A stretch of DNA of 24,000 bases from Solobacterium sp. (GCA_024696355.1 JAILGV010000032.1:9482-33481); one strand, 5' to 3'. Numbered from the stretch's first letter, positions 8,566 to 23,587 are shown. Translations and numbers: made by a program. Notes: a model not told the origin generated them from the sequence alone.

Positions 8566-8603
8566 AAAGTCACTGTCCCGAAAGAAGGACAGTGACTTTT
8601 TTT
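8566..8603 (-). terminator. Stem-loop terminator immediately after the LysR stop codon
   Basis: A perfect 13-bp stem pairs AAAGTCACTGTCC (8566-8578) with GGACAGTGACTTT (8587-8599) around an 8-nt loop. The T-run is on the plus-strand side; the minus-strand tail is TTTCCGTT. The only upstream gene is the minus-strand LysR, so the hairpin may act in both directions. Confidence 0.6.
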
Positions 8604-9468
8604 ACTGTTTTATGACGTTTTTGAAGAAGCGGATGATATCTGCACGCATGGTTTTGACCGCTGCCGACTGATATCCGCCTCCGCGCCAGGACAGGTTGAT
8701 GTATCTGTAGCAGTGCGGGTATTCGATCTCCTTCAGGACAAAATTATCGTAGTTCAGATCCGTCCATGTCACGGAAGGAATAAAGCATATGCCGAGTCCT
8801 GCCTGCACAAGACCTCTCACCGTATCCGGTGAATCACTCTCAAGAATAATATCCGGTTCAATGCCTGCCATGCGGCAGTACGCATCCGCTGCGATGCGAA
8901 GGTTCTTTCCTTTTTCAAGGGCGATAAATTTCATGTCTTTTGTGTCTGACAGACGGACATGTTTTTTCTCCGCAAGAGGATCGTTTTTCGGAACCGCCAG
9001 CAGGAGTTCCTCCTGAAGCAGGATGACGGAATCCGGATCCTCCGGACGGTGAATGGACGATGTGACGGTAAGATCACATTCCTCATTGCTTCTGCCGAGC
9101 GTCAGATGCAGGGCAATATCCGGATATTTGTTCTGAAACTCAATAATAAACTGCGTCATCAGTTTTGACGCCGCCTGCACGGAAACCGATACGGATGACA
9201 TCTGATCACCCTTCATCTCCCTGATCTCGCTGTAAATGTCCTCTGTTTCCTTCAGAATCCTTTTGGCGTGCTTTAATACTGCCTCCCCGTATTGATTGAG
9301 GACTATCTTTTTGCCGGATCTGTCAAACAGACTGACGCCCAGTTCAGCCTCCAGATTAGAGATCGTCCGGCTCAGTGAAGGCTGTGCAACATGAAGCTGT
9401 TCCGCCGCCTTTGTGACATGTTCAAGCTCTGCTACTTTGCGGAAATATTCCAGTGAATGAAGATCCAT
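8602..9468 (-). CDS. LysR-family transcriptional regulator, divergent from the decarboxylase operon
   Basis: The N-terminal winged HTH MDLHSLEYFRKVAELEHVTKAAEQLHVAQPSLSRTISNLEAELGVSLFDR is a canonical LysR signature. A C-terminal substrate-binding domain of typical length follows. Confidence 0.92.
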   Translation of the reverse strand: MDLHSLEYFRKVAELEHVTKAAEQLHVAQPSLSRTISNLEAELGVSLFDRSGKKIVLNQYGEAVLKHAKRILKETEDIYSEIREMKGDQMSSVSVSVQAASKLMTQFIIEFQNKYPDIALHLTLGRSNEECDLTVTSSIHRPEDPDSVILLQEELLLAVPKNDPLAEKKHVRLSDTKDMKFIALEKGKNLRIAADAYCRMAGIEPDIILESDSPDTVRGLVQAGLGICFIPSVTWTDLNYDNFVLKEIEYPHCYRYINLSWRGGGYQSAAVKTMRADIIRFFKNVIKQ

Positions 9469-9499
9469 TGCCGTCTCCTTTTTCTTATAACAATTTCAG

Positions 9500-9553
9500 T
9501 ATATATCCGTAACTCACTATATATCAATAGATATATAGATCCGATGCTATATT
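9500..9553. promoter_or_regulatory. Candidate LysR operator and divergent promoter region
   Basis: TATATATC occurs at 9500-9507 and 9518-9525, and its exact inverted copy GATATATA at 9530-9537. The last two form a 20-bp perfect dyad with a 4-bp spacer. A TATATT -10-like hexamer at 9548-9553 lies 37 nt before the ATG at 9590. No convincing -35 element is seen. Confidence 0.4.
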
Positions 9554-9589
9554 GATCTTGTTAAATAAGGATCGGAAAGGAAACTGAAA

Positions 9590-11218
9590 ATGAATTGGAA
9601 TATTGAGCGCCAGTCAAAGGCAGAACGGCTCGAAGCCGCATCCGCGTATATTTCCGGCAAAGAAGTATCAACCGAAAATATCGTAAAAGTACTGGAAACC
9701 ATCATTCATCCTGCAGACAAAGTTGTTCTGGAGGGATGCAACCAGAAACAGGCCGCTTTCCTGGCCGGAGCACTGACCAGGGTAGATCCCGAAAAAGTGA
9801 ATCATCTCAACATGATCATTCCTTCAATTTCACGCAATGAGCATCTTGAAGTATTTGAAAAAGGCATTGCCGAGGAACTGAACTTCGCATTTGCCGGTGT
9901 TCAGTCACTGCAGCTGGCACAGATGCTTGCCGCAAAGAAGCTCCGCATCGGTGCCATTCACACTTATCTGGAGCTTTACGGAAGACTGTACGTTGATCTG
10001 ACACCGAATATCTGCCTGATCGCCGCAGACAAAGCGGACAGAAACGGCAATCTGTACACCGGATACAACACGGAGGAAACTCCCATGATTGCGGAAGCTG
10101 CCGCATTTAAAAACGGCATCGTTCTCGCTCAGGTCAATGAAATTGTCGATACATGCGACCTTCCCCGCGTAGATATTCCGGGTGACTGGACAGACCTCAT
10201 CGTCAGGGCAGATGAACCGTATCCGATGGAGCCTCTGTTTACAAGAGATCCTGCCAAAATCCAGGATATGCACATCCTGATGGGCATGATGGTCATCAAG
10301 GGCATTTATGCAAAGCACAATGTCATGAGCCTCAACCATGGCATCGGATACAACGGCGCCGCAATCGAACTGCTTCTGCCGACATACGGAAACGAACTCG
10401 GCCTGAAGGGCAAGATTGCCACTCACTGGGTACTTAACCCGCATCCGACCCTGATTCCGGCTATCGAAGACGGCTGGGTAAAGCAGGTATGCGCATTCGG
10501 CGGTGAACTGGGCATGGACAGATATACAGCAGCTCATTCTGATATTTTCTTCACCGGAAGGGACGGATCCCTCAGATCCAACCGTGCCGCCGCACAGGTT
10601 GCCGGCCTTTACGGCATGGACCTCTTCCTCGGCGGAACACTCCAGATGGACTATCACGCAAATTCCTCAACTGTAACCAACGGACGTCTGAGCGGATACG
10701 GCGGAGCACCCAACATGGGCAACAGCTCCGGAGGAAGAAGACACGTCACAAAAGCATGGAGCGATATGGCTCCCGGAAACGGTTCCCTGATCAGCGGACG
10801 CAAGCTTGTTGTCCAGATGGTGAAGAGCTCATCCAAGTTCGGACCTGCGTTTGTTCCGGAACTTGATGCCGTCAAAATCGGCAGAGAAGCCGGAATGGAA
10901 AATGTGCCGGTTATGATCTACGGCGAAGATGTAACGCATACCGTTACCGAGCAGGGCATTGCGTATCTCTATGCCGCTGAAAGCGAAGAGGAAAAGACAA
11001 AGCTCCTCGGCGCTGTCGCTCAGGGAACACCGATCGGAGATCTTGTCACAAAAGAGGAAATCGACGCCTTCCGTGCAGCAGGCAAGGTTGCATATCCGGA
11101 AGACCTCGGCATCGATCCTGCCCGCGCCAACAAGAGCATGCTCGCTGCAAAAACACTTGATGAGATCTCCGAGATTTCCGGAGGCCTCTACGAAGTTCCG
11201 GAAAAATTCAGAAAGTAG
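9590..11218 (+). CDS. Malonate decarboxylase alpha-subunit homolog (MdcA/MadA-like acyl transferase of the CoA-transferase superfamily)
   Basis: The 542-aa protein carries blocks I recognise from MdcA: LEGCNQKQAAFL, GAIHTYLELYGRLYVDL, ADKADRNGNLYTGYNTEETP, LPRVDIPGDW, EPLFTRDP, SLNHGIGYN, NPHPTLIPAIE, GRDGSLRSNR, GYGGAPNMG, KLVVQMV and GIAYLY. Its length matches MdcA at about 550 aa. An AAAGGAAA SD-like sequence lies upstream. Confidence 0.88.
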   Translation: MNWNIERQSKAERLEAASAYISGKEVSTENIVKVLETIIHPADKVVLEGCNQKQAAFLAGALTRVDPEKVNHLNMIIPSISRNEHLEVFEKGIAEELNFAFAGVQSLQLAQMLAAKKLRIGAIHTYLELYGRLYVDLTPNICLIAADKADRNGNLYTGYNTEETPMIAEAAAFKNGIVLAQVNEIVDTCDLPRVDIPGDWTDLIVRADEPYPMEPLFTRDPAKIQDMHILMGMMVIKGIYAKHNVMSLNHGIGYNGAAIELLLPTYGNELGLKGKIATHWVLNPHPTLIPAIEDGWVKQVCAFGGELGMDRYTAAHSDIFFTGRDGSLRSNRAAAQVAGLYGMDLFLGGTLQMDYHANSSTVTNGRLSGYGGAPNMGNSSGGRRHVTKAWSDMAPGNGSLISGRKLVVQMVKSSSKFGPAFVPELDAVKIGREAGMENVPVMIYGEDVTHTVTEQGIAYLYAAESEEEKTKLLGAVAQGTPIGDLVTKEEIDAFRAAGKVAYPEDLGIDPARANKSMLAAKTLDEISEISGGLYEVPEKFRK

Positions 11219-11232
11219 ACGGAGGACAGGAT

Positions 11233-12780
11233 ATGGCTACAAAAAAACAGCAGGAAATGCTGGACAGAAAGAAAGCCCTCATGCAGGGCGGCGGTGAAAA
11301 AGCCATCGCCAGACAGCACTCACTTGGCAAGTATACAGCCCGTGAGCGCATTGAAAAATTCTTTGATGAAGGAACATTTACGGAAACCGGTCTGTTTGTA
11401 AAGCACCGCTGCACAAACTTCGGCATGGAAAAGAAAGACCTTGCCGGGGACGGTGTCGTAACCGGATACGGAAAGGTCAACGGCAGGCTTGTTTATGCGG
11501 CTGCGCAGGACTTTACCGTAGTCGGCGGATCGCTCGGCGAAATGCACGCTTCCAAGATCGCCGCAGCTCAGGAGGCTGCCATGAAGGTCGGTGCTCCGAT
11601 GGTCTGCATTAATGACTCCGGAGGAGCACGTATCCAGGAAGGCGTTGACGCGCTGTCCGGCTACGGAAGAATCTTCTACAACAATACGATCGCTTCCGGC
11701 GTTATCCCCCAGATCTCAGTAATCATGGGTCCGTGTGCCGGCGGTGCGGTATACTCACCGGCAATTACCGACTTTATATTCATGGTTCAGGGCACGGGAC
11801 AGATGTACATCACAGGTCCCAATGTCATCAAGACAGTTACCGGCGAGGAAGTTACCGGTGAAGCACTCGGCGGAGCCGATGCACACAACAGAATTTCCGG
11901 TGTCGCGCACTTCAGCTGTGCAAACGAAGATGAATGCCTGAATCAGATCAGGGAACTGCTCAGCTATCTCCCCTCCAATCACCTCGACGCCGCACCTTCC
12001 TATGAATGCAGCGACCCGGTCACAAGAGCTGATGAAGCGCTTGACAGTCTGGTTCCCGAAAATCCCAACAGACCCTACGATGTCAAAGACATTATTGAAA
12101 AAATTGCCGACAACGGATATTTCCTTGAAGTCCAGGAGGCATATGCACGCAATATCGTGACATGCTTCATCCGCATCAACGGTGAATCAGTCGGCGTCAT
12201 TGCAAACCAGCCGAAAGTCAATGCCGGCTGTCTGGACATCAACGCGGCAGACAAGGCAGCCCGGTTCATCCGTACCTGCGACTGCTTCAATATCCCGCTG
12301 CTTACTCTTGAAGATACTCCGGGCTTCCTGCCGGGCACAGCACAGGAACACGGCGGCATCATCCGCCACGGCGCAAAGCTTCTGTATGCCTACAGCGAGG
12401 CAAGCGTTCCCATGGTGACAGTCATCATGAGAAAAGCATACGGCGGCGCATACATCGGCATGTGCTCCAAGCACCTGGGTTCTGACATCGTATACGCATG
12501 GCCCGATTCAGAAATCGCCGTCATGGGCGGAGACGGTGCTGCAAATATCATTTTCGCAAAGGAAATCAAAGCCGCCGAAGATCCTGCCGCAAAGAGAGCA
12601 GAAAAACTTGCGGAGTACCAGCAGATGGCAATGAATCCCTATGTCGCAGCAGCCAGAGGCTACGTTGACGATGTCATCATGCCTCATGACACACGCCGTG
12701 CCATAGCCGGTGCATTTGAGTCCCTGAAGGGCAAACAGGTTTACAAGCCGCGCAAGAAACACGGAAATATTCCGCTGTAA
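11233..12780 (+). CDS. Acyl-CoA carboxyltransferase, methylmalonyl-CoA decarboxylase alpha / PccB type
   Basis: The 515-aa protein has GKYTARERIEKFFDEGTF, DFTVVGGSLGEMHASKI, INDSGGARIQEG, MGPCAGGAVYSPA, the C-terminal-half motif LEDTPGFLPG...EHGGIIRHGAKLLYAY, and the terminal KKHGNIPL. These are typical of MmdA/PccB/12S transcarboxylase. GGAGGA lies 6 nt upstream, and the gap after the previous gene is 14 nt. Confidence 0.92.
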   Translation: MATKKQQEMLDRKKALMQGGGEKAIARQHSLGKYTARERIEKFFDEGTFTETGLFVKHRCTNFGMEKKDLAGDGVVTGYGKVNGRLVYAAAQDFTVVGGSLGEMHASKIAAAQEAAMKVGAPMVCINDSGGARIQEGVDALSGYGRIFYNNTIASGVIPQISVIMGPCAGGAVYSPAITDFIFMVQGTGQMYITGPNVIKTVTGEEVTGEALGGADAHNRISGVAHFSCANEDECLNQIRELLSYLPSNHLDAAPSYECSDPVTRADEALDSLVPENPNRPYDVKDIIEKIADNGYFLEVQEAYARNIVTCFIRINGESVGVIANQPKVNAGCLDINAADKAARFIRTCDCFNIPLLTLEDTPGFLPGTAQEHGGIIRHGAKLLYAYSEASVPMVTVIMRKAYGGAYIGMCSKHLGSDIVYAWPDSEIAVMGGDGAANIIFAKEIKAAEDPAAKRAEKLAEYQQMAMNPYVAAARGYVDDVIMPHDTRRAIAGAFESLKGKQVYKPRKKHGNIPL

Positions 12781-12789
12781 GGAGGAAAT

Positions 12790-13128
12790 ATGTTCGGAGA
12801 TGAAGTTTCTGTATTGCAGGCGCTGCAGATCTCTGCAGTCAGTATCCTGATCGTATTTCTGGTCCTTCTGTCAATTTCCTGGCTGATCAGAATTACGGCA
12901 GTGATCATCAACAGACCTGCAAAGAAGGAAATCAGGGAAGTTCCCGCCGCAGAAGCACCGGCAGAGCCTGCAGAAGAAGTCAGGGATGATTCAGATAAGT
13001 TCATTCTTGCCGCAGCTGCCGTAGCTGCATATCTCGGCACAGACCGTTTTGTAATCAGAAGTATCAGAAAAGCAAATGAAGAAGGCAGCTGGGCTGCCAG
13101 AAGCCGTACAGGCTTCCTGGATGAATAA
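12790..13128 (+). CDS. OadG/MmdD-like small membrane anchor subunit of a Na+-translocating decarboxylase
   Basis: The 112-aa protein has one N-terminal transmembrane helix (ISAVSILIVFLVLLSISWLI) followed by an Ala/Pro/Glu-rich linker. It sits between the carboxyltransferase and BCCP genes, as in mmdADCB. An AGGAGG SD is present. Confidence 0.75.
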   Translation: MFGDEVSVLQALQISAVSILIVFLVLLSISWLIRITAVIINRPAKKEIREVPAAEAPAEPAEEVRDDSDKFILAAAAVAAYLGTDRFVIRSIRKANEEGSWAARSRTGFLDE

Positions 13129-13143
13129 GAGGAGAGAAAAAAT

Positions 13144-13512
13144 ATGTCAGTTAAAACATTCCGCATTGTAATGGACGGCGTTGAACACATTGTTGAAGTA
13201 GAAGAGCTCGGCGGAGTATCCGCTCCCGCACCCGCTGCCGTTTCTGCTGCACCGGCACCTGCACCCGCACCCAAGAAGAAAGCTTCCGCTGCACCTTCAG
13301 CCGGAGATATCCTGGCTCCTCTGCAGGGAACAGTTTCCGCAGTCAATGTCAAAGCCGGCGATTCCGTCAAGGAAGGCCAGATTGTTGCAATTATTGAAGC
13401 TATGAAGATGGAGAATGAAATCGCCGCACCCAGAGATGCTGTTGTTGCAGGTGTCTCTGTCAACCCCGGTGATAAAGTTAATGCCGATGATCTTCTGATC
13501 AGCCTGAAGTAA
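13144..13512 (+). CDS. Biotin carboxyl carrier protein (MmdC/GcdC-like)
   Basis: The biotinylation motif EAMKMENEI lies 35 residues from the C-terminus, preceded by an Ala/Pro linker (APAPAAVSAAPAPAPAPKKK). The N-terminus FRIVMDGVEHIVEVEE matches decarboxylase carrier subunits. A GAGGAGAG SD is present. Confidence 0.9.
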   Translation: MSVKTFRIVMDGVEHIVEVEELGGVSAPAPAAVSAAPAPAPAPKKKASAAPSAGDILAPLQGTVSAVNVKAGDSVKEGQIVAIIEAMKMENEIAAPRDAVVAGVSVNPGDKVNADDLLISLK

Positions 13513-13525
13513 AGGAGGAGATGTC

Positions 13526-14689
13526 ATGCTTGATATTCTTCTGCAGTTCTGGCAGGGATCAGGTCTGGCACAGCTGTTTGAACTCAACGTTGAATTGTTC
13601 GGCATAGCTCTTCCGGGCTATCTGATCATGCTGATGCTTGCCTGCTTATTCCTGTATCTGGCGATCGGAAGAGGATATGAGCCGTATCTTCTGATTCCCA
13701 TTGCGTTCGGTATGCTGCTGGTCAATCTGCCCCTTGCGGGATTAATGGAACACGCTACCGCATCCGCCAAGGGAGGCCTGCTCTACTATCTTTATCAGGG
13801 TGTTGATCTGGGTATCTATCCCCCGCTGATCTTCCTGTGCATCGGTGCCGGAACAGACTTCGGACCGCTGCTGGCAAATCCGAAGAGCCTGCTTTTAGGT
13901 GCTGCTGCCCAGCTCGGTATCTTCTTTACCTTCCTGGGAGCCATCCTGCTCGGCTTTACCGGACCGGAAGCCGCTTCAATCGGCATCATCGGCGGAGCCG
14001 ACGGCCCTACGGCACTTCTGCTGACCTCTCAGCTGGCACCCCAGCTTCTCGGTGCAATTGCCATCGCTGCGTATTCCTATATGGCTCTTGTACCTGTTAT
14101 TCAGCCGCCGATCATCAAGCTTCTTACAACCGAAAAGGAACGTAAGATCAAGATGTCGCAGCTGCGTCAGGTTTCCAAAAAGGAAAAGATCGTCTTCCCG
14201 ATTGCAGTAACACTGTTTACGTGTCTTCTGCTTCCGGATGCCTCCCCGCTGATCGGAATGCTGATGCTCGGCAATCTGCTCAAGGAATCCGGCAGAGTTC
14301 CGCTGTTATGCTCCTGTCTGGAAAAATCACTGATGTATATCGTCTCTGTTTTCCTCGGCCTGACAGTCGGTGCCAAAGCAACAGCTGAAATGTTCCTGCG
14401 TGCAGAAACATTGAAAATTATCCTTCTCGGCATCATTGCCTTCAGTCTCGGCACAGCCGGCGGCGTTATCCTCGGTAAAATCATGTGCAGACTGGACGGC
14501 GGAAAAACAAATCCCATGATCGGTGCGGCAGGCGTATCTGCTGTTCCGATGGCTGCCCGTGTCGTACAGAAGGAAGGCCAGAAGTACAATCCTTCCAACT
14601 TCCTCCTCATGCATGCCATGGGTCCGAATGTGGCGGGCGTGATCGGCTCTGCAGTCGCAGCCGGAATGCTCATGCTGTTCTTCAAATAA
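13526..14689 (+). CDS. Na+-translocating carboxybiotin decarboxylase beta subunit (OadB/MmdB/GcdB/MadB family)
   Basis: The 387-aa polytopic membrane protein has the family-typical length and blocks such as IGAGTDFGPLLANPK, GIIGGADGPT, GNLLKESG and MGPNVAGVIGSAVAAG. An AGGAGG SD is present. Confidence 0.92.
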   Translation: MLDILLQFWQGSGLAQLFELNVELFGIALPGYLIMLMLACLFLYLAIGRGYEPYLLIPIAFGMLLVNLPLAGLMEHATASAKGGLLYYLYQGVDLGIYPPLIFLCIGAGTDFGPLLANPKSLLLGAAAQLGIFFTFLGAILLGFTGPEAASIGIIGGADGPTALLLTSQLAPQLLGAIAIAAYSYMALVPVIQPPIIKLLTTEKERKIKMSQLRQVSKKEKIVFPIAVTLFTCLLLPDASPLIGMLMLGNLLKESGRVPLLCSCLEKSLMYIVSVFLGLTVGAKATAEMFLRAETLKIILLGIIAFSLGTAGGVILGKIMCRLDGGKTNPMIGAAGVSAVPMAARVVQKEGQKYNPSNFLLMHAMGPNVAGVIGSAVAAGMLMLFFK

Positions 14690-14695
14690 TCTCTG

Positions 14696-14722
14696 AAATG
14701 CCGGGTCCGGACCCGGCATTTT
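14696..14722. terminator. Bidirectional rho-independent terminator between convergent transcription units
   Basis: A perfect 11-bp stem pairs AAATGCCGGGT with ACCCGGCATTT around a CCGG loop. TTTT follows on the plus strand and TTTCAGAG on the minus strand. It lies 7 nt after the beta-subunit stop and 74 nt after the stop at 14796. Confidence 0.75.
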
Positions 14723-14795
14723 ACTTTCTCATACAATGCATGAAATCTGTATCCCGAAGACATTTGAAAGGACCGGCGCTTACTGCCGGTCCCTG

Positions 14796-18988: not shown

Positions 18989-19831
18989 TTAAATAATTAC
19001 GATATTCCGGAAGCCCCTGCTTTCTGCATGTTTTTTCAGATCCAGCATATACTGCTCTGCCGGTTCCTTAAAATTCTGATACTTCCCGCGCACACCGAAG
19101 TGACGGTATTTGATCAGCTTGTACCGGATATCCTTTTTCTCAAGATACGGCTTTAATATCTCACCGACAGTATCAATCGTCTTCTTGCTGTCCAGGCTGT
19201 CCGGTATGCATACAGTTCTGATCTCTTCCAGTTTATTGACGGAAGCCAGATATTCCAGATTATCCAGTACGGGTTTAATGCTGCAGCCGGTAAGCCACCG
19301 GTGTCTTTCTTCACAGTCAGCCTTCACATCCAGCATTACGCCGTCACAGACTTCCAGCAGTTCCGGATGATTTCTGAAGTCATAAGATCCGTTGGAATCC
19401 AGCAGAGTTCCCAGCCCGTGCGCCTTTGCAATCGCAAACAGTTCTCTGACTGTCTCTGCCTGCAGTGTACATTCTCCGCCGGAAACAGTGATTCCCCGGA
19501 TGAAGGGAAGACTGCCCTCGATCTTCCTCCAGATTTCCGGTGCGCTCATGTATTTCACTTTCGGCGAAGCATTATTGGTGCATGTCCTGATGCAGGTATC
19601 GCATCCGCAGCACTTCTCTTCATTCCATACCACTTTTCCTTCCGCAAAGCTCAGGGCGCCGGCAGGACAGGTCTTTACACATGCGCCGCAGCCGGTGCAC
19701 AGATGAATTGTTTCCGGATTATGACAGTAGCGGCAGTCGAAATTGCATGACTGGAAAAAGACTGCCGTCCTGTTGCCCGGTCCGTCAACGACGCTGCTGG
19801 GGATAATCTTGTTTACGGGTGCCTTATTCAT
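18989..19831 (-). CDS. yjjW: Glycyl-radical enzyme activating protein, YjjW type (radical SAM plus two ferredoxin-like 4Fe-4S motifs)
   Basis: KIIPSSVVDGPGNRTAVFFQSCNFDCRYCHNPET carries the CxxxCxxC radical SAM motif, followed by CTGCGACVKTCP and CCGCDTCIRTC. GITVSGGECT is also present. The pattern aligns well with my recollection of E. coli YjjW. The ATG at 19831 overlaps the upstream stop (ATGAATAA). Confidence 0.9.
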   Translation of the reverse strand: MNKAPVNKIIPSSVVDGPGNRTAVFFQSCNFDCRYCHNPETIHLCTGCGACVKTCPAGALSFAEGKVVWNEEKCCGCDTCIRTCTNNASPKVKYMSAPEIWRKIEGSLPFIRGITVSGGECTLQAETVRELFAIAKAHGLGTLLDSNGSYDFRNHPELLEVCDGVMLDVKADCEERHRWLTGCSIKPVLDNLEYLASVNKLEEIRTVCIPDSLDSKKTIDTVGEILKPYLEKKDIRYKLIKYRHFGVRGKYQNFKEPAEQYMLDLKKHAESRGFRNIVII

Positions 19832-21347
19832 CAAAGCTCCTGACTTTCTTTTCGGTCAGATGTCTGGAAGGAGTTTTGTCAGTTACCAGACATACAGAGT
19901 CATTGGCAACAGCTTCCCCTCTCTTCAGCTTCTCAACTTCTGATTTCTTCATTAAGTAGCCGGTAACCCTGATCAGATCTCCGCTTCCCAGATATGTGGA
20001 CATATATTTGACGCCGACTTTGAAGCCGCCCTTGAAAATATCCAGCAGGGCATCCAGATTGCGGAATGCAGTCTCATCAAACGGGAAGATATCGCCGATG
20101 CCGGACGGGCAGAAGTGATGATACAAACCGCAGTTCCTGAGATGTTCATACAGTTCCGGCTCATCGCCGTATGCAATCCTGGTTCCGGCAGAGTTGCCTT
20201 CATCATCTGCGGCGCCTACCTGGGAATGCATGACAAACCGGTGATTGTATGAATACGGACAGTAATGTTCGTTAACGGCTTTCTCAAGCGTTTCCAGAAT
20301 TCTGACACCCAGTGCATCCGCCTCTGCATCATGTCCCATACGGCCTTCCCTGCCGTCTTTTTTCATCAGGTTATTTACGCACTCACATAAACCGACGAAG
20401 CCGAACAGACCGACAAACCTGTCAGACTGCACAAAGCCTTCCTTCACCATCCAGTCCGAATCAAAGAACGCACGGTTTTCCACCACATTCCTGATTTTGG
20501 CATCCATGAACTTCAGCTGCGTATCAATGCACAGAGGCAGTCTGCGGCTGAAGAAATCTTCAGAGTTTTTACTGTTCTCGGAAATGGTTCCGAGTCTCAG
20601 TCTGCACAAAGTATAGGCGCCTCCTCCGATCAGAAGTCCGTTATAGCAGGACGCAATCCCGTAGTTTTCTCCGACTCTTTCCTTATAGAAGCTGTCCAGG
20701 CCGAAAGCCGGATTGGCGCACCTTAAAGCGCAGTCCAGAGCTTTTTTGGCAAATCCGTCCGGTGTTGTTTCCGGATCATAGCGCAGTGTCATATTCGGAG
20801 TAATATTCTGCAGTTCCGGCATTAGCTCCAGCAGAATATTGCCGGTGACCGATTCCTCCGGTCCGATATTAGCCTGTACGAAGCTGTCGGACATCGTACG
20901 GTCAATGCTGATAAGGAACAGCCGCAGAGTCTGCTTTGCTGCTTCATAGTCTTCCCTGACAACAAATTCCTCAAGCAGATCATCCAGTCTGCCCAGAAAG
21001 ACCGGAAAGCGGTCAACGGAATGGGCATTATGATAGAAGATCAGCAGTGCATTAACTGCTTCCGCCAGATTCTTCGGGGCAGAGAGTCTCAGGAACTCCG
21101 AGCCTTCCTTCAGAAACTTCTTGTAGTCAGGAAGAATATAGCGCGGCGATCTCGGGCCGTGTCCTTCTCCCAGATCATTGATTTCACGGCTTTCCATCAG
21201 CTGATAGAATTCTTCGGGTGTTCCTTCCGGATAATCCAGAAGATTTTCTGCATATTTTGCCAAAGCATCAGTTCTCTGCCAGTAGGTGAGTCTGCGGTCA
21301 TTCATGATGGTTTCGATTTCCTGCTGGAGTTTCTTTTTATCACACAT
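19824..21347 (-). CDS. yjjI: YjjI-family glycine radical enzyme (DUF3029), function unknown
   Basis: The 507-aa protein starts at the ATG at 21347, with GAGGAG 6 nt upstream. The C-terminal SGDLIRVTGYLMK matches the glycyl-radical RVxGY motif. The blocks GEGHGPRSPRYILPDYKKFLKEGSEFL, ANIGPEES, PNMTLRYDPETTPD and GIASCYNGLLIGGGAYTL parallel E. coli YjjI as I remember it. It is immediately followed by the cognate YjjW-type activase. Confidence 0.88.
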   Translation of the reverse strand: MCDKKKLQQEIETIMNDRRLTYWQRTDALAKYAENLLDYPEGTPEEFYQLMESREINDLGEGHGPRSPRYILPDYKKFLKEGSEFLRLSAPKNLAEAVNALLIFYHNAHSVDRFPVFLGRLDDLLEEFVVREDYEAAKQTLRLFLISIDRTMSDSFVQANIGPEESVTGNILLELMPELQNITPNMTLRYDPETTPDGFAKKALDCALRCANPAFGLDSFYKERVGENYGIASCYNGLLIGGGAYTLCRLRLGTISENSKNSEDFFSRRLPLCIDTQLKFMDAKIRNVVENRAFFDSDWMVKEGFVQSDRFVGLFGFVGLCECVNNLMKKDGREGRMGHDAEADALGVRILETLEKAVNEHYCPYSYNHRFVMHSQVGAADDEGNSAGTRIAYGDEPELYEHLRNCGLYHHFCPSGIGDIFPFDETAFRNLDALLDIFKGGFKVGVKYMSTYLGSGDLIRVTGYLMKKSEVEKLKRGEAVANDSVCLVTDKTPSRHLTEKKVRSFDE

Positions 21348-21379
21348 AATACTCTCCTCAATTTTCTGCACACAAATAA

Positions 21380-21396
21380 TCTGAACTCTCTTCAGA
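21380..21396. other. Short AU-rich hairpin in the cdd-yjjI spacer, possibly a weak terminator or attenuator
   Basis: TCTGAA-CTCTC-TTCAGA forms a 6-bp stem. TTTTT follows on the plus strand and TTATTTGTGTG on the minus strand. The stem is weak, so function is uncertain. Confidence 0.25.
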
Positions 21397-21463
21397 TTTT
21401 TGGCTGCGTTATCCCCGGGTGCTTCAGTCCTGCAGTTCACATCTGTGATTTAGCGCATTGTTT

Positions 21464-21899: not shown

Positions 21900-22060
21900 T
21901 ATGGGCCGTGTGAACTACCCAAGGCTAAAGCACTTGGGCTTCTTGCTTCATCGATGAGTTCTTATACTCTGCGTCCGAAGACACAGGTACAGCGGAACTA
22001 TTCTCCACAAGACTCTGAGCTCTACGTTCCATAGAGACTTGACGAAGTGCTTCCTCCAAG
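21900..22060 (-). ncRNA. Predicted TnpB omega-RNA (reRNA) region spanning the tnpB 3' end and the right-end hairpin
   Basis: This call is by analogy only. In characterised IS200/IS605 elements, the guide RNA is transcribed from the 3' end of tnpB through the right end. Here the right-end hairpin (21918-21938) overlaps the tnpB stop codon. The extent is a guess. Confidence 0.3.
21918..21938 (-). repeat. IS right-end subterminal hairpin
   Basis: The CCCAAG/CTTGGG stem has a 9-nt loop. It matches the copy at 23639-23659 at 20 of 21 positions. Confidence 0.75.
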
Positions 22061-23187
22061 ATGGATTGGGCACTTTTTATATCTCTTGATTCGTGATGAT
22101 ATCCGCAGTGTATGCAGTTATACTCACGTTCTGAGAGCGGATGCTTCGTCAGACATCCGCATACCGGACATATCTGTGTACTTGGAAAACTGCGTTCTAC
22201 CACATGGACTCTGAAGTTGTTCCTCAACTTCGCTTTGATATAGCCCATTGCGGAATGCTGAACCTGTTTTCCAAATAACCCGGAATGCCAGTTGTGTATC
22301 ATCTCATCCTGGATCGCTATGAAATCATAGACGGTCAGGATATCGTGAACGATCTTGTTTGCCAGATCCGTACGTCTGTTTTTATCCTTCTGATATGCGA
22401 TCTGAAGTCTCTTTATCCGTCTGTAATGATTGCAGGATCTTTTTCCGTTGTTTTTCCGCAGGGATCTGTTTACCCGGACAGACGCCATTTTGGAACGTTT
22501 GCTTTCAGAGACATTGATGTCAAACAAGGTCCCGTCTGACAGTGTCAGATTATGTTCGATCCCGAAATCTATTCCACATTCTTTATCTGTCTTGACCCGA
22601 TCCTCTTTCAGCACAAAACAGGTGATGTGGAAGTACAGTCCATCCGGTTTACGGATGAATCTCGCATTTGTGATCTCTGCGATATCCGGGATCTGCTTCA
22701 ATCCCCGAACATAAAAGTCCTTACGGATGTTCTGGATCTTGATACGGTTCCGGGAAAAGTCGATCCTGTAAGTGACTCCATACTGCCGCAGTGGAATGGA
22801 ATTGCAGTAAGACTTAAAACTCAGGGCACCGACCTTCTCTCCCTTTCCCTTTTTTGTATGGAGACCTCTGATCTCACTTTTCACCATGTCATAGATATCC
22901 TGGCGAACCTGGGATCCAAGGAGTTCAAGAGGACGCTCTTCAAATGTTTCCCCGATCTTTACGACCGCAGTTTTCCCGTTGCGGTCCGCACTTTCCAGAT
23001 CTGCGACGATGGAATTACGGCGCCACTTCGCTTCACGGAAATATTGATTGACTTGTTCCTTCTGAGCCTTAGACATCTTGGAAGATACCACTTTCACCTC
23101 AAAAACACGGCAATCCATCTGAGAATGCCGTGCTTTCGTGGATCTCATGGTGTTTCGGATATTGTTATTTTTTTCTTCTTGACTCAT
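21925..23187 (-). CDS. tnpB: TnpB (IS605 OrfB-type RNA-guided nuclease, RuvC plus zinc finger)
   Basis: RuvC-I (CGIDFGIEH), RuvC-II (IAIQDEMIHNW) and RuvC-III (HHESRDIKSAQSI) are all present, together with the zinc finger CPVCG...CIHCG. The start is uncertain: the ATG at 23187 overlaps the tnpA end, the alternative ATG is at 23148, and neither has a clear SD. Confidence 0.88.
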   Translation of the reverse strand: MSQEEKNNNIRNTMRSTKARHSQMDCRVFEVKVVSSKMSKAQKEQVNQYFREAKWRRNSIVADLESADRNGKTAVVKIGETFEERPLELLGSQVRQDIYDMVKSEIRGLHTKKGKGEKVGALSFKSYCNSIPLRQYGVTYRIDFSRNRIKIQNIRKDFYVRGLKQIPDIAEITNARFIRKPDGLYFHITCFVLKEDRVKTDKECGIDFGIEHNLTLSDGTLFDINVSESKRSKMASVRVNRSLRKNNGKRSCNHYRRIKRLQIAYQKDKNRRTDLANKIVHDILTVYDFIAIQDEMIHNWHSGLFGKQVQHSAMGYIKAKLRNNFRVHVVERSFPSTQICPVCGCLTKHPLSEREYNCIHCGYHHESRDIKSAQSILEEALRQVSMERRAQSLVENSSAVPVSSDAEYKNSSMKQEAQVL

Positions 23188-23587
23188 TTGTTTTCTGGTC
23201 TTCGATATATTTTTTGACAACGTCAAGGGACACACTTCCAACAGTGGCGATAAACTTACTTCTGGTCCACAGAGTAGGCAGTTTACGTTCCAGTTCAGGA
23301 AATTCCCGGTTCAGAATATGTGCAGTTTTACCCTTGATGCGGGATACCAGAATATTGATCCCGATCGTAGGGTCGACATCCAGCAGGAGGTGGACATGAT
23401 CCGGCATGACTTCCATTTCAAGTACATAAAAGTTCTGTTCCTCCTGCATTGACAGAACGATCTCCTTGAATCTCTGTGCGATCGGTTCGCGAAGCACCTT
23501 TCGCCTGTATTTCGGGCAGAAGATGACGTGGTATCTGCAGCAGTAGACAGTGGTTTCTGTGGATCGGTATTCGCTTTTCATATCCAT
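23165..23587 (-). CDS. tnpA: IS200/IS605-family Y1 (HUH) transposase TnpA
   Basis: The 140-aa protein has YHVIFCPKYRRKVL, the HUH motif PDHVHLLLD, LPTLWTRSKFIATVG, and the catalytic-Tyr helix VVKKYIEDQ. It is closely parallel to IS608 TnpA as I recall it. A TATAAT hexamer (gatATAATatctATG context) lies just upstream. Confidence 0.92.
   Translation of the reverse strand: MDMKSEYRSTETTVYCCRYHVIFCPKYRRKVLREPIAQRFKEIVLSMQEEQNFYVLEMEVMPDHVHLLLDVDPTIGINILVSRIKGKTAHILNREFPELERKLPTLWTRSKFIATVGSVSLDVVKKYIEDQKTNESRRKK

Follow-up and report, generated by a model that had tools for sequence, protein, structure and literature searches.

How can a protein of the malonate decarboxylase alpha-subunit family, whose known members work with an acyl carrier protein (ACP), operate where no ACP is encoded? 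This question is raised by a 24,000-nucleotide (nt) stretch of DNA from Solobacterium sp. (GCA_024696355.1 JAILGV010000032.1:9482-33481), hereafter the window, in which a full-length homolog of the alpha subunit (MdcA) heads a five-gene operon. Two malonate decarboxylases are known from textbooks, Mdc and Mad, each with a dedicated ACP, a phosphoribosyl-dephospho-CoA arm and maturation enzymes. An earlier note on the window had proposed that its MdcA-like protein is an ACP-free malonate:acetyl-CoA CoA-transferase that feeds a Na+ pump resembling methylmalonyl-CoA decarboxylase (Mmd). Our analysis favors this proposal: an either/or split of gene neighborhoods over 95 loci, the loss of ACP-docking residues while the malonate site is kept, the monophyly of the transferases and the variants of the gene cassette all support it. 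With a probability of about 0.75, we read the operon as a self-contained, LysR-controlled, ACP-free system for malonate decarboxylation coupled to Na+ export.

To place the operon among its relatives, loci with a full-length MdcA were sorted by their neighbors. A locus was considered hybrid if it encoded a PccB/MmdA-type carboxyltransferase (CT) at least 60% identical to that of the window, and classical if an MdcC ACP and/or MdcDE adjoined mdcA. A scan of one genome per species gave about 25 loci with the arrangement LysR-MdcA-CT-(OadG)-BCCP-OadB, where BCCP is a biotin carboxyl carrier protein, and another 80 loci came from metagenomes, which were scanned with an alignment of mixed MdcAs. 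The classified loci numbered 95, with 37 hybrid and 58 classical, and MdcG and MdcH were also present in most of the classical ones. No locus was of mixed type (0/95), and neither MdcC, MdcG nor MdcH was found within 8–10 kb of any hybrid cassette (37/37 loci). The identity of MdcA to the window protein was at least 64% in hybrid loci and at most 62% in classical loci, and a neighbor-joining (NJ) tree placed the hybrid MdcAs in one clade. The earlier note had suggested surveying neighborhoods for an mdcA-like gene with an mmd-type arrangement and building a phylogeny of the alpha-like protein; the 37 hybrid loci, the alternation of ACP-type and CT-type neighbors, and the single clade are the outcome. 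Since the same gene order recurs in 37 loci, it represents more than a chance neighborhood.

The carriers of the hybrid cassette are Erysipelotrichaceae metagenome-assembled genomes (Solobacterium, Bulleidia and others), mostly from ruminant gut, Oscillospiraceae (Angelakisella, Ruthenibacterium and others), digester Clostridia and, in culture, Hungatella effluvii DSM 24995 of the Lachnospiraceae. Lacrimispora sinapis and Anaeromicropila herbilytica, which we take to be Lachnospiraceae as well, have the classical LysR-MdcA-MdcC-MdcDE-MdcG-MdcH form, and thus both architectures occur in this family. The flanks of the cassette differ between genomes, which points to its horizontal spread among anaerobic gut, rumen and digester Firmicutes. 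A homologue search with a basal hybrid member (L046) returned no match labeled as a cultured or a Sporomusa carrier, and the database label of the hybrid transferase is only “malonate decarboxylase subunit alpha”. In a representative library at 50% clustering, the MdcA family collapses to one full-length cluster plus fragments, which allowed no family-wide survey; this library yielded the Mad-type comparator P0133.

Next, we asked which parts of the MdcA fold are kept in the hybrid proteins. The window's MdcA-like protein (9590-11218, plus strand) matches PF16957 at full length (829 bits; 828.9 over residues 2–541) and makes a borderline pass of the mdcA model TIGR01110 (789.5 vs. a cutoff of 789.15). 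It is 57% identical to the Pseudomonas aeruginosa MdcA 5vit (E = 3.6e-200). The structure of the P. aeruginosa MdcA-MdcC-MdcD-MdcE assembly defines ten malonate/catalytic residues (N59, Y134, R228, N258, I261, N292, F312, R341, Q345 and G381), of which F312 packs on the malonate CH2; four residues at the MdcC interface, F424, E466, I490 and R521, were mutated in MdcA, and F424A alone abolishes holoenzyme assembly (PMC5534430). Positions were mapped via the 5vit alignment and compared in the 37 hybrid and 58 classical sequences. All ten malonate/catalytic residues are identical in the window protein and in every hybrid sequence. They are also kept in 58/58 classical sequences, nine being invariant and I261 being Val in six.

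The interface positions behave otherwise. At position 424, classical sequences have Phe (51) or Tyr (7), while hybrid sequences have Ser, Arg, Ala, Gln or Lys and never an aromatic residue; the window has Ser. Position 466 is Glu in 57 of the 58 classical sequences, as opposed to Gln (34) or His (3) in the hybrids and Gln in the window. At position 490, the classical Val, Ile, Leu or Ala is replaced by Gly in 35 hybrid sequences, the window included, and at position 521, Arg (51 of the 58 classical) gives way to Pro in 25 hybrids, among them the window, with Arg kept in 10. Twelve of 543 columns (265, 310, 356, 358, 389, 422, 424, 427, 434, 466, 489 and 547) are at least 85% conserved in the classical set and disjoint in the hybrid set. 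Seven of these (422, 424, 427, 434, 466, 489 and 547) lie within the C-terminal AC domain; the twelve include two of the probed interface residues and four positions that flank such residues. Of the four probed residues, three belong to the 53 columns that best discriminate between the groups (p = 0.003, hypergeometric). The variability of position 424 in the hybrids suggests relaxed constraint, while the new fixation of positions 434, 466, 489 and 490 suggests that this surface acquired a new function. Inspecting the residues that contact the ACP, as the earlier note had recommended for the alpha-like protein, thus revealed a lost docking site beside a malonate site retained as a whole.

These results bear on the first alternative, in which the operon belongs to an ordinary ACP-dependent malonate decarboxylase whose ACP (MdcC/MadE or CitD) and prosthetic-group enzymes are encoded elsewhere, with the CT acting on malonyl-ACP. 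The MdcA-like protein does, after all, match its family at full length and narrowly passes the equivalog cutoff of mdcA. The search for ACP genes covered only the window and 8–10 kb flanks in relatives, and two classical-type MdcA loci (L087 and L111) likewise have no adjacent ACP genes within 8 kb. However, ACP genes are missing beside the cassette in 37/37 hybrid loci despite differing contexts and families, and the residues equivalent to F424, E466 and I490 are replaced; F424A alone is enough to disrupt the holoenzyme. In addition, the CT is of the acyl-CoA type, unlike the MdcD/E or MadC/D of both known ACP systems. We consider this alternative unlikely.

The CT (11233-12780, plus strand) is a single-chain PccB/MmdA-type protein that matches PF01039 at full length (662 bits) and TIGR01117 with 842 bits. 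Its best PDB matches are beta subunits of acyl-CoA carboxylases and transcarboxylases (E = 1e-203 to 1e-185), including Thermotoga 1vrg, the propionyl-CoA carboxylases (PCCs) 3n6r and 6ybp, the 12S transcarboxylase 1on3 and Streptomyces PccB; some of these structures were reportedly solved with CoA. Identity to the ACP-dependent MdcDE is only 23–33%, over partial lengths. We also considered the CT residue Ile408, which occupies the site of PccB D422 (D407 in MePCC) and is Ile in all 37 hybrid CTs, as a marker of the substrate. Although Ile fits acetyl- or malonyl-CoA, the marker was dropped as non-diagnostic and is not used as evidence, since Ile is also present in Thermotoga 1vrg and Val in the genuine PCC 3n6r.

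A second alternative starts from this CT. The operon could encode a standard methylmalonyl-CoA decarboxylase of the succinate-to-propionate pathway, beside which the MdcA-like protein is an unrelated or accessory neighbor; in another form of this alternative, MdcA would activate methylmalonate or a different dicarboxylate in place of malonate. The best NCBIfam match of the CT is indeed mmdA, and the A-D-C-B gene order resembles that of mmd clusters. Yet the CT stays under the mmdA cutoff (842 vs. 998.8), spacers of 9–15 nt join the genes, and the adjacency of MdcA and CT is kept in 37 loci. Neither a methylmalonyl-CoA mutase nor an epimerase was found by Pfam scans of the large open reading frames (ORFs) of the window. 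At 10/10 positions, F312 among them, the malonate pocket is the same as in P. aeruginosa MdcA, and relatives have an MdcF-family carrier, an MdcR-like LysR and a promoter box, described below. On this evidence both forms of this alternative are very unlikely, and the caveat of the earlier note that the substrate might be methylmalonate is disfavored by the conserved pocket.

The last three genes would couple the CT to the membrane. The OadG/MmdD-like anchor subunit (12790-13128, plus strand) has an N-terminal hydrophobic helix in its translation and matches the PF04277 OAD_gamma family (45 bits vs. a cutoff of 27); it is below the cutoff of TIGR01195 and scores 23.1 with the MmdD model, whose cutoff is 150. 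The BCCP (13144-13512, plus strand) exceeds the cutoff of PF00364 (67 bits) and carries the biotinyl-lysine K88 in an EAMKM motif, while the MmdC model gives 76.7 vs. a cutoff of 200. The third gene (13526-14689, plus strand) encodes an OadB/MmdB-type Na+-translocating carboxybiotin decarboxylase (PF03977, 516 bits; TIGR01109, 484.2 vs. a cutoff of 190.6), which is far below the cutoff of the MadB model TIGR03136 (178.6 vs. 596.9). Its residues D159, Y185, N329, S338 and R345 align with D203, Y229, N373, S382 and R389 of Salmonella OadB 6iva, which presumably form the Na+/H+ pathway; all five are conserved. With spacers of 9–15 nt, no small ORF such as one for the epsilon subunit fits between the genes. 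Overall, the Pfam and NCBIfam scores bear out the identities that the earlier note had assigned to the five structural genes.

From these parts, a three-step process can be proposed. First, the MdcA-clade transferase would convert malonate and acetyl-CoA to malonyl-CoA and acetate (EC 2.8.3.3 chemistry), a reaction suggested by its intact active site, its lost ACP docking and the acyl-CoA type of its partner CT. Malonate would sit in the same pocket as in classical MdcA, with the thioester coming from free acetyl-CoA and not from MdcC's acetylated prosthetic group, and the chemistry would be of the ternary-complex type described for MdcA. In the second step, predicted from the CT family, malonyl-CoA and biotin-BCCP would yield acetyl-CoA and carboxybiotin-BCCP. 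In the third, for which family membership and the conserved pump residues argue, carboxybiotin and H+ would release CO2 while the OadB-like subunit exports Na+, with the OadG-like anchor holding the complex. Overall, the reaction would be malonate + H+ -> acetate + CO2, and a Na+ gradient would be built up. Because acetyl-CoA would be regenerated and CoA would cycle catalytically, no priming or prosthetic-group enzymes (MdcB/G/H or MadH) would be needed.

The control region adds to the likeness with malonate operons. A LysR-type regulator with HTH_1 and LysR_substrate domains (8602-9468, minus strand) diverges from the operon across a 121-bp promoter/operator region (9469-9589, strand unassigned), whose sequence was read directly. 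Copies of TATATATC lie at 9500-9507 and 9518, and the inverse GATATATA lies at 9530, so that TATATATC-AATA-GATATATA forms a perfect 8-bp dyad with a 4-bp spacer (9518-9537). The dyad, to which the regulator is predicted to bind as its operator, shares positions with a sigma-70-like promoter for lysR (9527-9498, minus strand). The window LysR is 40–53% identical to the LysR proteins of other hybrid loci and 39–40% identical to those beside the classical mdc operons of two Lachnospiraceae loci (L028 and L029). A box, TATATATT[AGT]GAC-N17-TATnAT, is common to many hybrid loci and to the same two classical loci. The Klebsiella mdc operon, too, is under a LysR-type regulator (MdcR). The LysR identities and the common box suggest that hybrid and classical loci share MdcR-like, malonate-responsive control, and the window LysR is probably an MdcR-like activator that responds to malonate, effector binding being part of this prediction. 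We also tried the conserved box TATATATTNGAC as the operator of the window; it was rejected, being unmatched within two mismatches, and the TATATATC repeats are a variant and not proof of the same operator.

Variants of the cassette were then compared. In Oscillospiraceae, a 4HBT hotdog thioesterase lies between MdcA and CT. Carriers of three families adjoin the cassette in relatives: an MdcF-family (Mem_trans) carrier directly after OadB in L005, L007, L008 and L018, a DcuC-family carrier beside LysR in L003, L009, L022 and L023, and a DASS carrier beside LysR in H. effluvii. Different lineages thus appear to have added different dicarboxylate carriers. An operon of digester Clostridia (L034-L036; 15182-21632) continues with an amidase-signature enzyme, a biotin-protein ligase (BirA) and BioY; as a speculation, amide precursors such as malonamate or ureidomalonate might be a source of malonate. 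Two very abundant gut lineages have stripped forms, one with LysR-MdcA-CT only (P0075, indexed in 548 blocks) and one with LysR-MdcA alone beside birA (P0110, a cluster of 2690 sequences), and the MdcAs of both carry the hybrid interface signature. That a transferase should stand alone is understandable if what it makes is malonyl-CoA, which can diffuse. Taken together, the thioesterase, BirA/BioY, the carriers and the stripped forms fit a free-CoA, biotin-dependent, dicarboxylate-fed system.

The stripped forms of very abundant gut lineages (L031-L033 and L126/L127, also L040-L042) have no adjacent pump; they comprise LysR-MdcA-CT, with a CT of 542 amino acids (aa), or LysR-MdcA beside birA. 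A 98-aa ORF after the stand-alone MdcA of L040 was considered as a cryptic ACP and rejected, its translation being low-complexity, Gly/Arg-rich and without a Pfam match. Variants with MdcA and CT only, or MdcA only, would suit a third alternative, in which the system runs in a biosynthetic or exchange direction: acetyl-CoA would be carboxylated to malonyl-CoA at the expense of the Na+ gradient, or the CT would work like a transcarboxylase with other biotin proteins, and MdcA would release or scavenge malonate. Na+-transport decarboxylase (NaT-DC) enzymes are reversible in vitro, which also counts for it. By contrast, the window encodes a complete pump, and uptake-type dicarboxylate carriers and a catabolic-style LysR lie beside the cassette. 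Moreover, malonate decarboxylation is strongly exergonic, at about -44 kJ/mol according to a review. We regard a reverse direction as highly improbable.

Several points weigh against ACP-free malonate decarboxylation as the function of the operon. The search for neighbors covered only the 24-kb window and, in relatives, flanks of 8–10 kb. TIGR01117 mmdA is the best NCBIfam match of the CT, at 841.8 bits below the cutoff of 998.8, and the CT may prefer either malonyl- or methylmalonyl-CoA. Since the hybrid clade is monophyletic, the interface counts are not 37 independent events and may stem from a single ancestral one. The promoter box of the relatives, TATATATT[AGT]GAC-N17-TATnAT, has no match in the window within two mismatches. 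No transporter gene lies within the 24-kb window; this part of a caveat in the earlier note stands, but it is softened by the MdcF-family, DcuC-family or DASS carriers that adjoin the cassettes of relatives. Finally, what we observed is a gene set, its conserved sites and a lost docking surface, and from these we infer the three enzyme activities.

How does the operon compare with known systems? It resembles Mdc of Klebsiella, Pseudomonas and Acinetobacter (MdcABCDEGH) in its MdcA, which is 57% identical to that of P. aeruginosa and has the same malonate/catalytic site, and in its LysR-type control, the promoter box of hybrid loci being shared with Firmicute mdc operons. Unlike Mdc, the window operon has no MdcC ACP, MdcD/E or MdcB/G/H and has replaced ACP-docking residues; judging by family, its decarboxylation would be biotin-dependent and membrane-coupled, whereas Mdc is soluble. 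With Mad of the Malonomonas rubra type it shares the proposed conversion of malonate to acetate and CO2 with Na+ export via BCCP, OadG-like and OadB-like subunits. Mad, however, has an ACP and a split AccD/AccA-like CT (MadC/MadD), in contrast to the single-chain PccB-type CT and the missing ACP of the window. A Mad-type locus in our set (L124; 6188-12031) encodes MadA, an ACP::CT fusion, an MdcE-like gene, OadG, OadB and BCCP. Its MadA is only 38% identical to the window's MdcA-like protein and differs from MdcA at 9/10 aligned active-site positions, with R228 alone kept. In the fusion protein of this locus, the ACP is joined to the N-terminus of the CT (PF06857 + PF01039).

Mmd of Veillonella parvula and Propionigenium modestum, whose gene order is mmdADECB, has been reported to accept malonyl-CoA. 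Both it and the window have the order A-D-C-B, made up of a CT of the single-chain PccB type, an anchor of the delta/gamma kind, a BCCP and a beta pump, and, like Mmd, the window complex would work on a free CoA thioester. The window differs in lacking an epsilon subunit, in a CT, BCCP and anchor that are under the Mmd equivalog cutoffs, and in being joined to an MdcA-type transferase and an MdcR-like LysR outside any mutase/epimerase context. In Acidaminococcus fermentans, GctAB and GcdABCD offer a parallel in which a CoA-transferase activates a dicarboxylate with acetyl-CoA before a Na+-pumping biotin decarboxylase acts. GctAB, however, belongs to family I and works through a glutamyl-CoA intermediate, while MdcA belongs to family II and works through a ternary complex; the substrates differ, and the window route would regenerate acetyl-CoA directly.

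The closest precedent is physiological. Dehning and Schink are said to have described a malonyl-CoA route in Sporomusa malonica, with CoA transfer from acetyl-CoA followed by a biotin-dependent malonyl-CoA decarboxylase, the same pathway as we propose for the window operon. In the full-text literature searched, which left most subscription-journal papers outside, we found no genes assigned to this route and no description of a cluster of mdcA with mmd-type genes. The literature searched confirms that S. malonica grows by malonate decarboxylation, and this much only. Reviews name only the ACP-based Mdc and Mad systems. What is new here is the combination of the MdcA family with a NaT-DC decarboxylase, both families being already known. 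A broader reading joins several claims: the operon would represent a third class of malonate decarboxylase, one that does without an ACP; within MdcA, a sub-clade would have become a genuine malonate:acetyl-CoA CoA-transferase working with an Mmd-like Na+-pumping malonyl-CoA decarboxylase; the cassette would be mobile, would be widespread among Firmicutes of rumen, gut and digesters and would constitute the missing genes of the S. malonica route; and the stripped forms would mark malonate use in very abundant human-gut lineages. We hold this combination to be reasonably likely, with somewhat less confidence than the assignment of the operon itself.

The operon probably encodes a third means, not described so far, by which bacteria of gut and rumen draw energy from malonate. 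If so, the minimal gene set is reduced to five structural genes, the roughly 30-year-old physiology of malonyl-CoA-dependent malonate fermentation is explained, and a family II ACP transferase has reverted to free CoA. Firmicutes of rumen and gut would then conserve energy from malonate, a compound that legumes contain in abundance, and engineering would gain a compact module with which to make malonyl-CoA from malonate or to couple decarboxylation to Na+. The cultured carrier H. effluvii DSM 24995 makes the model directly testable.

A separate MdcA-like lineage, represented by L055 (4941-11166), also lacks the docking residues and has V424, I466, D490 and P521 instead. This suggests that ACP-free use of the MdcA fold may have arisen more than once. 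The neighbors of L055 are genes for a glycerate kinase, a hydroxypyruvate-isomerase-like TIM-barrel protein, a tartronate-semialdehyde-reductase-like dehydrogenase and an aldehyde dehydrogenase. The locus may encode a CoA-dependent route from tartronate or malonate to glycerate.

Six ORFs of interest, the lysR gene and the five structural genes, were confirmed in the window by ORF listing and profile searches at the positions first given for them. The five co-directional genes are separated by 14, 9, 15 and 13 nt, in line with the 9–15 nt reported before. The claim that every gene has a strong Shine-Dalgarno (SD) sequence stands for genes 2–5 (GGAGGA, AAGGAGG, GAGGAG and AAGGAGGAG) and fails for the MdcA-like gene 1, whose SD, GGAAAGGAAA, is weaker. 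The operon ends at an intrinsic terminator (14694-14723, plus strand) with arms AAATGCCGGGT/ACCCGGCATTT; its stem has 13 pairs, of which a core of 11 bp is perfect, and is closed by a loop of 4 nt and followed by a tail rich in T. Both boundaries described in the earlier note are present, namely the divergent LysR gene with its dyad and this terminator, and the operon is indeed the sole plus-strand block, all other called genes in and around the window being on the minus strand.

Within the 24-kb window there are no genes for an ACP, MdcB, MdcG or MdcH, and tblastn of the window with MdcC, MdcG, MdcH and Mad-type ACP queries gave no match. Pfam scans of all large ORFs of the window found only housekeeping or unrelated genes outside the operon, and Rfam and tRNA scans of the window gave no matches. 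The upstream neighbors are prs, a glmU-like gene, ispE, ksgA, rnmV, tatD and mnmE. Downstream lie genes for DAHP synthase, a DUF6320 protein and a glycyl-radical enzyme of the YjjI type and its activase, together with cdd and an IS200/IS605 element, all on the minus strand like those upstream.

Some observations concern the surroundings of the cassette in relatives. In one Erysipelotrichaceae group (L005, 15271-21000; also L006, L007, L008, L012, L015 and L018), the genes downstream of the cassette form an F-type ATP synthase operon, and in L005, L007, L008 and L018 the MdcF-family carrier stands between OadB and this operon. In the ATP synthase c subunit of the L005 group, helix 1 carries a Glu and helix 2 an E-T...Y motif, by which the subunit presumably resembles the two-carboxylate Na+-binding c-rings; this hints at a local Na+ cycle in these Erysipelotrichaceae. 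The L034-L036 operon abuts genes for a xanthine-dehydrogenase-type molybdenum hydroxylase. M20 peptidases (L003 and L031) and a CN-hydrolase (L024) are encoded nearby in other loci.

In the window itself, the YjjI-like glycyl-radical enzyme (PF11230, 598 bits) and the adjacent radical-SAM activase occupy 18989-21440 on the minus strand. The enzyme adjoins a 513-aa protein without a clear family and the DUF6320 membrane protein. The IS200/IS605-type element (21925-23587, minus strand) consists of a TnpB-like 438-aa ORF, with OrfB_IS605 and a Cas12f1-like TNB domain, and a Y1 transposase TnpA of 140 aa. Identical TnpA copies are present on several other short metagenome contigs, where they adjoin different genes.

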